A stretch of DNA of 64,000 bases from Escherichia phage vB_EcoP-ZQ2, in the sequence record NC_070874.1. One strand, written 5' to 3'. The translations under genes were made by a program, and so were the position numbers. Within the stretch, counting starts at the first letter, position 1; every line of letters begins with the position of its first letter. Below the pieces are notes generated by a model that was given only the letters and a program-made list of their open reading frames with translations, was not told the DNA's origin and searched no databases. Of the stretch, positions 45,440 through 47,580 are shown in pieces.

Positions 45440-45994
45440 TTACGCCTTTAATAACTTAATAAGGTTCTGGAAAGCTGGGAGATTTACACCAGCATGGATT
45501 GCACCGATTGCATCAGCTAAGTGCTCATTCTTATTCAAAAGTTTACCCTTCTTATCTGTGAGCCAGTTGGCTTCAGGATAGATGGCATGAGCAGCACGAA
45601 TCATCGTGTCCTTAGATGCAGTTTTATCACCGACCAGTGCAAGTTTGTTTTCAATTGGGGATACTTCAAAGATTGGACAACCCAATGCTCGAAATGCACC
45701 GATTAATCCTACGCATACACCATAGGATTTCATACCGTTAGCAGACTGAGAGCCTACTGGTACTTCTACGAATACTGCTTTAGCAGACCGTAACCATTCC
45801 TCACAACCAAGAAACAAATCGTGAGCGGCTTGTATATCTTTGGAGTTGGTTCGAACTTGTTTGTTGTGGTCAACTTCAGTTTGAACCAGTTTAAGTTCGA
45901 CCTGCTCGAAGACGCCGGACTCAATGTCCAGCATCCCACGAGCTAAACCCCAATTGCGGAGACTAATGTCTGCACCAACAATTGGGATTTTCAT
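45440..45994 (-). CDS. RNase H-fold nuclease, RuvC/YqgF-like putative Holliday-junction resolvase
   Basis: 184 aa; N-terminal KIPIVGADISLRNWGLARG resembles the G-x-D-x-S...G-x-A signature of RuvC/YqgF resolvases; start overlaps the SSB gene stop. Confidence 0.45.
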   Translation of the reverse strand: MKIPIVGADISLRNWGLARGMLDIESGVFEQVELKLVQTEVDHNKQVRTNSKDIQAAHDLFLGCEEWLRSAKAVFVEVPVGSQSANGMKSYGVCVGLIGAFRALGCPIFEVSPIENKLALVGDKTASKDTMIRAAHAIYPEANWLTDKKGKLLNKNEHLADAIGAIHAGVNLPAFQNLIKLLKA

Positions 45995-46788
45995 TAACGT
46001 TTGCCGAACAGTGATTTACCACCAGCAGGAGTAGTACCAGTACCTGCACCAGGTTTAGGAGGCAAGCCGCCTTTACCATTACCACCAGCAGAACTCTTAG
46101 TCTTGTCACGAGTTTTGCCTTTGTTCTTCTCCAGCCATGCTGCATAGAATACAGCCAGTTCTGGGGTCAGTTCTTTCTCAGCCTTCTCTGCTTCCTGAGC
46201 CTCGACGACTGTGACCAGCAGTTCCGGGTGAAACACTTTCTGAATCTCGTTTACTTCACGAGTTTCACCGGAGTCAACATAACCGTTGTCGCCTTTAACC
46301 TGCTTGGATTCCAGAACTTTTTCCAGAGCGAAGGTAACAGTCTGACCAACCAGTTCAACTGGAACCATGACGGATTTATTAACTTCTGCTTTAGCGTCGT
46401 AGTCGTAGACTTTAACAATCTTCTCTTCGAAGTCTGCTTCAGGCAGTTCAGTACCAGTAGCCATCAGCATCATGTCATTAATGACGGTATAACCAGGCAG
46501 GAAGTATTCTTTACCATTCTTCTCGTAAGTCGGCTTGTTGCCTTTAGCATTACCAGAAGTGAAGTACACCTGAGCACGAAACTCACCAGCAGGTACGCCA
46601 TCAGAGTTCTTCAGGTCTTCAATAATTAACTGCATCCAGTCTGCACCAGAGTCAGCTTTGCCTACGTAAGCTACTTTTACAGTACCGGTGTAGATATCGG
46701 ATTCTTTCACACCGAAGCCACCACCCAGGGAGTCTTTAGCAGCTTCAACGTTTTTGGTTTTTTCTTTCAGATTACTGAACAATGACAT
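45994..46788 (-). CDS. single-stranded DNA-binding protein (N4 gp45-like)
   Basis: 264 aa; Gly/Pro-rich flexible C-terminal tail (GGNGKGGLPPKPGAGTGTTPAGG); position between replication genes and the convergent vRNAP gene as in N4. Confidence 0.5.
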   Translation of the reverse strand: MSLFSNLKEKTKNVEAAKDSLGGGFGVKESDIYTGTVKVAYVGKADSGADWMQLIIEDLKNSDGVPAGEFRAQVYFTSGNAKGNKPTYEKNGKEYFLPGYTVINDMMLMATGTELPEADFEEKIVKVYDYDAKAEVNKSVMVPVELVGQTVTFALEKVLESKQVKGDNGYVDSGETREVNEIQKVFHPELLVTVVEAQEAEKAEKELTPELAVFYAAWLEKNKGKTRDKTKSSAGGNGKGGLPPKPGAGTGTTPAGGKSLFGKR

Positions 46789-46827
46789 ATGATTTTCCTA
46801 ATAAGTGATTAACAACCAGGCAAACGC

Positions 46828-47580
46828 TTAAGCGTAGTATTCAGCCAGATGGTCTAAGAGTTTCTGGGCATCGTTATCAATGTAAGTCTCGGACTTATCA
46901 AACATACCCATTGGGGAACGAAGTCGTTTACCAACCGACTTCTTAGTTGGACGGGTTTGGAATACGTGCTTATATCCTAAGTCACGTTCTTCTTCCGTAA
47001 TTTCAAGCATCTTGTTTCCATACTTCTCCAGTTCTTTAATGTCTACACGCTCTGCATAAACCACTGTAGAGAAGTAGGCTTCAAGCCCGTTATTTTTAAG
47101 AGAACCTTTTACTGGGATGAATGTTTTCATCACACCGGCAGCTTCATCAAGTTCGTCTTTAGCATGAGCAGTAATGATTACTGGCTTACCAAACTTAACG
47201 ACTTTCTGTTGCAGCAGTATCTTAAAGAACTGTGCAAAATCCCCCCATGCTTTCTGCGTGTTTGCAGAAGGCAATACGTACTGGGATTCCAGCATATCCA
47301 TCATGAAGGTTGCTGAGTCAATGATGATACCATCAACATCATCTGCCATTTCTCCACCAGGAGATGCAACATCAAATGCTTCCCAGATTTGATACGGGTC
47401 TTCAATGTTGTAGGTATTGAACTTGTTACGGAAAGGCAGACGCTTACCTGCTTCAGTATTCAGATAGAGCCAGCGTTCCTGGTTCCTGATGTTACGCAGT
47501 GATGCTGATTTACCACTCGCTGAGAATCCTGCAATCAGGATTAGCTGAGTGTTAATATCATTGGGAATTACTTCGGACAT
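46828..47580 (-). CDS. P-loop ATPase (Sak4/RecA-like or AAA-type; replication/recombination accessory)
   Basis: 250 aa; Walker A ILIAGFSASGKS near the N-terminus; Walker B-like GIIIDSAT. Confidence 0.4.
   Translation of the reverse strand: MSEVIPNDINTQLILIAGFSASGKSASLRNIRNQERWLYLNTEAGKRLPFRNKFNTYNIEDPYQIWEAFDVASPGGEMADDVDGIIIDSATFMMDMLESQYVLPSANTQKAWGDFAQFFKILLQQKVVKFGKPVIITAHAKDELDEAAGVMKTFIPVKGSLKNNGLEAYFSTVVYAERVDIKELEKYGNKMLEITEEERDLGYKHVFQTRPTKKSVGKRLRSPMGMFDKSETYIDNDAQKLLDHLAEYYA

Follow-up and report, generated by a model that had tools for sequence, protein, structure and literature searches.

A Sak4-like ATPase, an N4-type single-stranded DNA-binding protein and a RuvC-like nuclease encoded side by side in the replication gene block of coliphage vB_EcoP-ZQ2

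[quoted passage not shown] The question was raised by a stretch of 64,000 nucleotides from Escherichia phage vB_EcoP-ZQ2 (sequence record NC_070874.1; the window, in what follows), in which an original prediction had recognized such a trio. Three adjacent minus-strand open reading frames occupy exactly the predicted intervals, 46828-47580, 45994-46788 and 45440-45994, and they are co-directional with genes for exonuclease, primase, DNA polymerase and helicase. They are real genes rather than chance reading frames, because all three have PHROG matches (E-values of 1.9e-49 for the ATPase, 3.5e-88 for the SSB and 1.9e-42 for the nuclease), the SSB was found by tblastn in 451 phage records, and the nucleotide sequence of the region is 90-93% identical to that of many G7C-like phages. 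The genome is that of a Gamaleyavirus, a G7C-like, N4-like coliphage, and its close relatives label the three products "Sak4-like ssDNA annealing protein", "single strand DNA binding protein" and "RuvC-like Holliday junction resolvase".

The surroundings of the three genes are those of a compact replication block. Directly upstream of the ATPase gene lies that of the DNA primase (47637..49790, minus strand; phrog_2135 with an E-value of 0, Pfam PriCT_1), an orthologue of N4 gp43 with 80% identity. Farther upstream is the orthologue of the N4 gp42 exonuclease (50299..51279, minus strand; 70% identity by tblastn, and labeled "exonuclease" in relatives), a candidate end-resection partner for an annealing pair. 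The SSB gene begins 39 nt downstream of the ATPase gene, the stop of the SSB gene shares 1 base with the start of the nuclease gene, and a further gene (44992..45438, minus strand), which lies beyond the region originally described, begins 1 base past the nuclease stop and encodes a gp47-like protein of 148 aa. There is no strong intrinsic terminator between the primase gene and this last gene.

Searches of PDB sequences, with single sequences as well as profiles, gave no significant match for the ATPase, the SSB or the nuclease, so that comparison at the level of the fold was required; Pfam and NCBIfam had no model covering the SSB or the nuclease. The original prediction had called for homology searches with each protein, and these led to Sak4 for the ATPase, to N4SSB for the SSB and to the RuvC family for the nuclease.

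The ATPase gene (46828..47580, minus strand) encodes a 250-aa orthologue of N4 gp44, with 78% identity. The predicted Walker A motif GFSASGKS is found at G18-S25 (nt 47506-47529) and a Walker B motif, GIIID, at G84-D88 (nt 47317-47331); neither motif, D88 included, varies in the family alignment. Pfam assigns residues 14-218 to AAA_24 (5.2e-11; 43.2 bits, the cut-off being 27), and the PHROG match is to the Sak4-like family phrog_124; the ATPase profile found no sequence match in the PDB. BLASTP against Sak4 of phage HK620 gave two blocks in collinear order, with E 1e-6 and 6e-6, and a profile-profile comparison with hhalign extended the homology to HK620-type Sak4 over the full length (98.4%, E 5.8e-15, 194 columns), including the C-terminal SPMGMF..IDND block. 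The protein also has two further attributes of Sak4, being a single-domain ATPase of about 220-250 aa with Walker A and B motifs and having the gene of its cognate SSB next to its own. Sequence homology thus supports its originally predicted place in the Sak4 family, whose members are core-only RecA-like annealases, and predicts that it is an annealase.

Another role that could be envisaged for the ATPase is that of a replisome accessory, which would act mainly as a loader or remodeller with primase and SSB at forks rather than as an annealase, and would make the label of a recombination module misleading. Its gene always lies between those of primase and SSB within the replication block, Pfam gives it no family more specific than the generic AAA_24, and its conservation greatly exceeds that of the SSB (columns average 72% identity versus 45%), a level not usually seen for the accessory recombinase of a virulent phage. 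Against these points stand the full-length homology to HK620-type Sak4, the fact that annealing has been demonstrated for the HK620 protein (PMC5928155), and the presence of recombination functions beside the ATPase, namely the resolvase slot described below and, in phiA41, a gene resembling Mu Gam; we consider a mainly accessory role unlikely.

The middle gene (45994..46788, minus strand) encodes an SSB of 264 aa that is 60% identical to N4SSB (N4 gp45) over its full length, tail included, and that occupies the same gene position, which supports its identification as the N4SSB orthologue. A folded core at about residues 24-229 is followed by the Gly/Pro-rich linker that had been foreseen, at about residues 229-259, which is disordered in the AlphaFold2 model (overall pLDDT 83; disordered linker at 233-259), and the protein ends in KSLFGKR (nt 45997-46017) and begins with MSLFSNLK (nt 46765-46788). 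Conservation of the tail was observed directly, in that 6 of 7 residues of the N4 peptide KSLFGKK are kept, with F261 invariant across the family and L260 retained in at least 90%. Foldseek comparison of the model with the PDB returned SSBs or PriB throughout, all as weak matches (the best, PrgE, at E 3.7e-4 and TM 0.27/0.48), and comparison with BFVD returned DUF669 proteins (E 2.3e-10, TM 0.49/0.59). These results suggest a very divergent OB-fold, DUF669-like protein, the OB fold being indicated by weak structural matches. A canonical bacterial SSB, with PF00436 and an acidic DDDIPF tail, was rejected, since there is no Pfam or NCBIfam match and the tail is basic.

Homology between the N4-type and HK620 SSBs emerged only after a six-member profile of the HK620 type had been built, which hhalign aligned with the window SSB family at 94.8%. 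Direct BLASTP (E 0.027) and comparison of the profile with the single sequence (5.8% probability) were negative, and a homologue search with the HK620 SSB gave only copies 87-100% identical, of no use for a profile. Both proteins belong to phrog_743. A DUF669 match by sequence was found by Pfam in 0 of 61 N4-type and 0 of 6 HK620-type SSBs.

Replication, recombination and late transcription in N4 all depend on N4SSB, whose C-terminus is essential for activation through the RNA polymerase beta' subunit (PMC4496689). The original proposal that the SSB couples these three processes in the present phage therefore restates N4 biology, and it is plausible here because the two proteins are orthologous; the beta' interaction experiment suggested at the same time has essentially been carried out with N4 already. 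One could hold instead that the SSB of this phage is a replication protein only and that the activator role is specific to N4. Identity between the two proteins is only 60%, the searchable literature yielded no experiments on how G7C-like phages transcribe their late genes, and a scan for sigma70-type promoters found no enrichment in the region (17 versus 19.5 expected), which says nothing on promoters; the middle promoters of N4 are not sigma70-type. The activation peptide, however, is near-invariant across the SSB family, and the host (E. coli) and the genome architecture, with late genes on the opposite strand and a virion RNA polymerase gene, are as in N4, all of which makes a purely replicative SSB very unlikely.

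The nuclease gene (45440..45994, minus strand) encodes a 184-aa orthologue of N4 gp46 (69% identity; phrog_159), in which the segment GADISLRNWGLARG, residues 7-20, had led to the prediction of a RuvC/YqgF-like nuclease with an RNase H fold. A Pfam search at E<=0.1 gave no match, PF02075 included; several homologues that are 53-56% identical have a precomputed PF02075 match, and the nuclease profile reached RuvC in the PDB only at E 0.28-1.7. The AlphaFold2 model (pLDDT 92.5) has the RuvC fold, the best 12 Foldseek matches in the PDB all being bacterial RuvC (E 3.6e-9 to 5e-6, TM 0.56-0.80). The YqgF half of the prediction was rejected, RuvX (7ess) ranking 16th or lower with TM of 0.42-0.51, and the RuvC half held. 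Together with the fold, a D-E-H-D set is directly apparent: the putative catalytic residues D9 (45968-45970), E77 (45764-45766), H158 (45521-45523) and D161 (45512-45514) are invariant among 44 homologues. In a MAFFT alignment D9 and E77 fall on the first two catalytic residues of E. coli RuvC; H158-x-x-D161 corresponds to D138-x-x-D141 at the level of the motif only, the MAFFT block being shifted and alignment by sequence ambiguous. The model supports a RuvC-like rather than YqgF-like enzyme, and a resolvase is predicted.

A survey of 87 N4-like loci placed the three genes in a larger arrangement, a four-gene module in the order Sak4, SSB, resolvase (RuvC or RusA) and gp47-like gene. Sak4 was present, in the order Sak4 then SSB, in 85 of 87 loci, a frequency to be set against a 2014 study that left gp44 and gp46 outside a 14-gene N4-like core set. 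The gp47-like gene followed the resolvase gene in 73 of 87 loci, 66 of these 73 having no more than 20 nt between the two genes, and the full order was kept in about 73 of 87. In different Schitoviridae the slot after the SSB is filled by either a RuvC-like or a RusA-like enzyme, a non-orthologous replacement that argues for junction resolution as the selected function; the RusA annotations in pVa5 and RD-1410 were confirmed by PHROGs and had no confirmation by Pfam.

The same alternation of RuvC and RusA would fit a generic need for structure-specific debranching, of the kind that large-burst virulent phages commonly have (T4 gp49, T7 gp3). The nuclease might accordingly serve mainly to debranch concatemers before packaging, like T7 endonuclease I or T4 endonuclease VII, its adjacency to Sak4 and SSB reflecting middle-gene timing only. 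Since the biochemical activity would be the same, this differs in emphasis only from a role in recombination. The conserved order of the four genes with very short gaps speaks against mere co-timing, as does a terminal peptide common to the SSB and the resolvase-linked gp47-like protein, which suggests physical coupling; we find the debranching emphasis doubtful.

The gp47-like protein (phrog_7641, of unknown function, 7.7e-63) consists of a small N-terminal domain, an acidic/Pro-rich linker and a C-terminal KPSLFAGLKRS (nt 44995-45027). An SLF sequence occurs within the last 20 residues of 65 of 72 distinct SSB family members and 49 of 60 distinct gp47-like homologues, compared to 2 of 332 background reading frames, and neither the SLF motif nor N4 gp47 is described in the searchable literature. 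Separately, the tails of the SSB and the gp47-like protein co-vary to a degree reached by 14 of 5000 shuffles, a value that is uncorrected for phylogeny and only suggestive. Fusions of the gp47-like protein to RusA occur in some lineages (four distinct reading frames).

We propose the gp47-like protein as a fourth member of the module. It may be a resolvase adaptor, because several lineages have it as a RusA fusion and elsewhere it is translationally adjacent to the resolvase, and the peptide S-L-F-[GA]-x-[LK]-K at both SSB ends and at the gp47-like C-terminus, which in each protein terminates a long disordered linker, could tether SSB and resolvase to a common receptor, thereby linking annealing, resolution and the late-transcription switch. 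This reading as a whole is tentative, a possibility that we rate below an even chance. Candidate receptors are the Sak4-like ATPase (on the model of HK620), the RNA polymerase beta' subunit (the known target of N4SSB) and the host sliding clamp. A clamp-binding reading of SLF drew on its resemblance to the clamp-binding consensus QL[SD]LF and was set aside, supporting evidence not having been found.

Taken as a whole, the locus is quite probably the G7C lineage's copy of the middle genes gp44-gp45-gp46(-gp47) conserved in the N4 family, transcribed together with those for exonuclease, primase and DNA polymerase. In such a module the SSB would coat single-stranded DNA both at forks and on resected ends, the latter presumably generated by the exonuclease encoded two genes upstream, and its flexible tail would help to load the Sak4-like ATPase. 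The ATPase would then anneal complementary strands in an ATP-dependent reaction, leading to recombination-dependent replication and concatemer formation, and a dimer of the RuvC-like nuclease would resolve the resulting branched DNA and probably also debranch it ahead of packaging. The KSLFGK(K/R) peptide of the SSB would, as in N4, act at late promoters to activate the sigma70 RNA polymerase of the host, and we propose that late expression waits for the replication proteins because the same SSB activates those promoters.

The three-gene finding is correct but ordinary. It is already known, because the triple role of N4SSB, the presence of Sak4 in N4-like phages and the link between N4SSB and DUF669 have all been published; dozens of phage records that are almost identical already annotate the three genes, and the finding as first stated is not new. 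The fresh detail is the short SLF tail peptide common to the SSB and the product of the next downstream gene of the module. If SLF is a common docking signal, it offers a handle on the old N4 question of how a replication SSB talks to the host RNA polymerase, and would also show how recombination proteins get recruited. The consolidated picture further includes the replacement of RuvC by RusA in the resolvase slot, the fourth gene, and the homology of the N4-family ATPase and SSB, as a pair, to the only biochemically characterized Sak4/SSB system.

The closest known system is N4 itself, an Enquatrovirus, whose gp44-gp45-gp46-gp47 cluster has the gene order, spacing and strand logic seen in the window. 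In both phages the order is exonuclease, primase, ATPase, SSB, nuclease, a small acidic protein and a convergent virion RNA polymerase gene, and the overlap of SSB stop and nuclease start is alike; orthology and synteny are here a matter of direct observation. Unlike N4, the window genome carries inserted HNH-AP2 homing endonuclease genes, at 49787-50359 and 44263-44760, and the annotated N4 gp47 lacks the SLF tail, apparently through a frameshift in the reference record.

In HK620, a temperate phage, Sak4 (HkaL) and SSB (HkaK) are adjacent in the same order and are both homologous to the window pair, a homology of the pair that was observed directly, and ATPase-then-SSB adjacency is found in divergent HK620-type phages as well. 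Annealing by HK620 Sak4 depends on ATP and is stimulated by way of the tail of the SSB; the same work noted Sak4 genes in N4-like phages (PMC5928155). The HK620 SSB is shorter (195 aa), and its tail, NDYPPF, which is required for loading Sak4, is acidic whereas the N4-type tail, KSLFGKK, is basic, so that the loading step may not transfer from HK620. There is no RuvC gene adjacent in HK620, which encodes RusA elsewhere.

Bacterial RuvC shares its fold with the window nuclease (the T. thermophilus, D. radiodurans, P. aeruginosa and E. coli enzymes matched at E 3.6e-9 to 7e-8, TM 0.62-0.80) at only 17-22% identity. Common to both are an N-terminal catalytic Asp in GxD, a Glu that follows the fourth strand and, toward the C-terminus, a helix with the motif H/D-x-x-D; in the window enzyme a His takes the place of the third acidic residue, as in T. 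thermophilus RuvC, and unlike its bacterial counterparts, the window nuclease has no RuvA or RuvB partners encoded nearby. Finally, DUF669 phage proteins have been proposed as SSBs (Kazlauskas et al. 2016), and a link of the N4 SSB to DUF669 was found by HHsearch (98%), with a diverged OB fold proposed (PMC4889955); the tails of DUF669 proteins are acidic, in contrast to the basic SLFGKK tails of the N4-type SSBs.

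Three adjacent ORFs make up the predicted recombination-type module, and all three were found on the minus strand with their boundaries exact: an ATPase (46828-47580, 250 aa, GFSASGKS spanning residues 18-25), an SSB (45994-46788, 264 aa, with a Gly/Pro-rich stretch and then KSLFGKR at its end) and a nuclease (45440-45994, 184 aa, GADISLRNWGLARG spanning residues 7-20). A single base is common to the stop codon of the SSB gene and the start codon of the nuclease gene, and one base after the nuclease stop begins a 148-aa minus-strand ORF (44992-45438; phrog_7641) that is the orthologue of N4 gp47. 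No strong intrinsic terminator was found on the minus strand from the primase gene to this gp47-like ORF. The module lies within a long minus-strand block, where the GC skew is negative from about 42 kb on; this block also codes for exonuclease, primase, DNA polymerase I and helicase and is convergent with the 3611-aa vRNAP ORF (30856-41691, plus strand). The region is 90-93% identical in nucleotide sequence to G7C-like coliphages (Gamaleyavirus, Schitoviridae; those compared include PBM-3, UE-M6, PhAPEC5, St11Ph5 and Bp4), whose records already name the ATPase "Sak4-like ssDNA annealing protein" or "AAA family ATPase", the SSB "single strand DNA binding protein" and the nuclease "RuvC-like Holliday junction resolvase". 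From the annotation of these near-identical genomes, and from the literature on N4, Sak4 and DUF669, the three-gene finding is already known.

Several other elements surround the module. Two homing endonuclease genes with HNH_3 and AP2 domains lie on either side of it (49787-50359 and 44263-44760, both minus strand); most close relatives lack the former, which lies between the exonuclease and primase genes (two-piece matches covering 91% of the query), and phages JWAlpha and phiA41 carry HNH genes at different insertion points of the same module. Three strong stem-loop terminators (41696-41721, 42302-42322 and 42856-42877) include a bidirectional one where the vRNAP gene meets the minus-strand block, and a tRNA-Ile gene (anticodon AAT as reported) is located at 43103-43177 on the minus strand.

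The nuclease had been described as RuvC/YqgF-like. Searches with its sequence against Pfam, NCBIfam and PDB sequences gave no match, and it matches phrog_159 ("RuvC-like Holliday junction resolvase") at 1.9e-42; several homologues with 53-56% identity carry a precomputed Pfam RuvC match. Across 44 aligned homologues, residues D9, E77, E157, H158 and D161 never vary. When the AlphaFold2 model (pLDDT 92.5) was compared with the PDB, the best 12 matches were all bacterial RuvC (E 3.6e-9 to 5e-6, TM up to 0.68/0.80), with chloroplast MOC1, RuvX (TM 0.42-0.51), lactococcal phage bIL67 RuvC and poxvirus resolvase further down. Because bacterial RuvC tops this ranking, with RuvX well below it, the predicted structure identifies the nuclease as RuvC-like and not YqgF/RuvX; the RuvC half of the description stands and the YqgF half is discarded. 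In an alignment with E. coli RuvC, D9 and E77 fall on the first two catalytic residues, and H158-x-x-D161 resembles E. coli D138-x-x-D141 by motif inspection only. T. thermophilus RuvC likewise has His at the third catalytic position.

The other two assignments, a Sak4-like P-loop ATPase and an SSB with a Gly/Pro-rich tail, hold as well, so that with RuvC in place of YqgF the overall reading is supported. The ATPase exceeds the Pfam AAA_24 threshold (43.2 bits vs 27) and matches phrog_124 ("Sak4-like ssDNA annealing protein") at 1.9e-49, and its family has an invariant Walker A motif and Walker B aspartate. JGI labels two homologues (P0248 and P0254) "prolyl-tRNA editing enzyme YbaK/EbsC", seemingly by propagation of an annotation error. 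The SSB matches phrog_743 end to end (3.5e-88), and tblastn with it recovered 451 phage records, essentially all N4-like; all 61 family members checked are without a Pfam match. Its AlphaFold2 model (pLDDT 83) is confident over about residues 24-229 and disordered over 233-259. The model gives weak but consistent matches to SSB/PriB-type OB folds in the PDB (PrgE at E 3.7e-4, bacterial SSBs at about 1e-2), and in BFVD it retrieves N4-like SSBs first and DUF669 proteins after them (E 2.3e-10). This modelled similarity reproduces a published link between N4 SSB and DUF669 (98% HHsearch probability), a highly diverged OB fold having been proposed for both (PMC4889955). In Shigella phage pSb-1 (locus L106; BFVD V5UPQ0 and V5UQ41) the public record divides the SSB gene into two ORFs of 158 and 106 aa, presumably due to a frameshift.

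Gene order was surveyed in 87 loci, seven from GenBank Schitoviridae and 80 from IMG/VR. The Sak4-SSB order is kept in 85, and the next conserved gene after the SSB is RuvC-like in 65 and RusA-like in 17 (for example L005:4241-4660, and in locus L007). The RusA-like assignment comes from PHROG matches (1e-39 and 2e-106); Pfam gave no match to these resolvases. That RuvC and RusA replace each other non-orthologously at one position is good evidence, by comparison across loci, that the third gene is selected for resolving junctions. Another gene for recombination or end protection has joined the module in Pectobacterium phage phiA41, where a Mu Gam-like gene for end protection (L008:4281-4619; phrog_15896, 3.2e-43) separates the SSB gene from the RuvC-like gene.

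The gp47-like gene comes after the resolvase in 73 of the 87 loci, with a gap of at most 20 nt in 66 of those 73. In its product a small N-terminal domain is followed by a long acidic/Pro-rich linker and, at the C-terminus, KPSLFAGLKRS, and the SSB carries similar peptides at both ends (KSLFGKR at 45997-46017 and MSLFSNLK at 46765-46788, minus strand). Among distinct sequences, SLF occurs within the last 20 residues of 65/72 SSBs and 49/60 gp47-like proteins (54/60 allowing [ST][LIM]F), in none of 52 RuvC-like or 71 Sak4-like proteins, and in 2/332 other ORFs of at least 100 aa. The C-terminal consensus is (R/K)-K-S-L-F-G-K-K-COOH for the SSB, where KSLFGK(K/R) is kept family-wide and F261 is invariant, and (K/R)-(P/R)-S-L-F-A-G-L-K-R-P-x-N for the gp47-like protein; that of the SSB N-terminus is M-S-L-F-G-N-L-K, with [ST][LIM]F in the first 10 residues of 41/72. 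Tail variants match between the two proteins of one genome (SLFG-COOH in pVa5, SLFS-COOH in Ab09, DLF in phiA41, [LI]FD in RD-1410), and the observed co-variation was reached by 14 of 5000 shuffles in a test that ignores shared ancestry. Furthermore, four distinct ORFs of 272-316 aa (L007:4304-5251, L160:2214-3164, L163:4740-5582 and L170:4834-5652) join RusA to the gp47-like domain with its linker and SLF-type tail, a fusion that ties the gp47-like protein to the resolvase. Speculatively, the SSB and the resolvase-linked gp47-like protein might bind a common receptor through these peptides; candidates are the Sak4-like ATPase, beta' and the host clamp. The annotated N4 gp47 (NC_008720; L002:8352-8786) ends in ...KPNLLCLQV without the motif; near its 3' end the +1 frame reads ...EEAKEPVQAKPSLFAGLKR*, with ...AKPSLFAGLKR* at its end. 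The tail being readable there, a frameshift in the reference record (a sequencing error or a lab-strain mutation) has probably removed it. A literature search found no paper mentioning N4 gp47 or the SLF tail; the common peptide and the RusA fusions, and only these, may be new.

N4 itself is collinear with the window, through gp42 exonuclease, gp43 primase, gp44, gp45 SSB, gp46, gp47 and the convergent vRNAP, with protein identities of 78% (gp44), 60% (gp45, N4SSB) and 69% (gp46), and KSLFGK(K/R) ends the SSB in both. According to a review, N4SSB is essential for N4 replication; its C-terminal residues are essential to late-transcription activation, via the beta' C-terminus, and this activation can do without its ssDNA binding (PMC4496689). 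In the inferred mechanism, the SSB would coat ssDNA and the Sak4-like ATPase, assisted by the SSB, would anneal complementary strands, the RuvC-like enzyme would resolve or debranch the products, and the SSB tail would also activate host RNA polymerase at late promoters as in N4.

The second comparison is with the characterised Sak4 and SSB (HkaK) of phage HK620. By BLASTP the ATPase aligned with HK620 Sak4 in two collinear blocks, one at Walker A and the other a C-terminal SPMGMF..IDND, and profiles of N4-type ATPases and five HK620-type Sak4 proteins matched at 98.4% probability over 194 columns. HK620 SSB is also assigned to phrog_743 (1.4e-65); its pairwise comparison with N4-type SSB was inconclusive before a six-member HK620-type profile was built, which matched the N4-type profile at 94.8% (E 5e-8, 156 columns). 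Judged by these profiles, the N4-type ATPase and SSB are homologous, as a pair, to the HK620 pair. The ATPase gene is directly 5' of the HK620-type SSB gene in HK620 and in divergent Aeromonas, Vibrio and Shewanella phages. In Stx-type Escherichia phage phi367 (L094) this SSB instead directly follows a RecT-like annealase and exonuclease, so this SSB type has partners in at least two kinds of annealase. Hutinet et al. (2018) noted Sak4 genes in "virulent (N4-like)" phages and showed that HkaK stimulates Sak4 annealing via its last six residues (PMC5928155). It is in this tail that the two SSB types chiefly differ: the HK620 type has an acidic one ending in Phe, the N4 type a basic SLFGKK.
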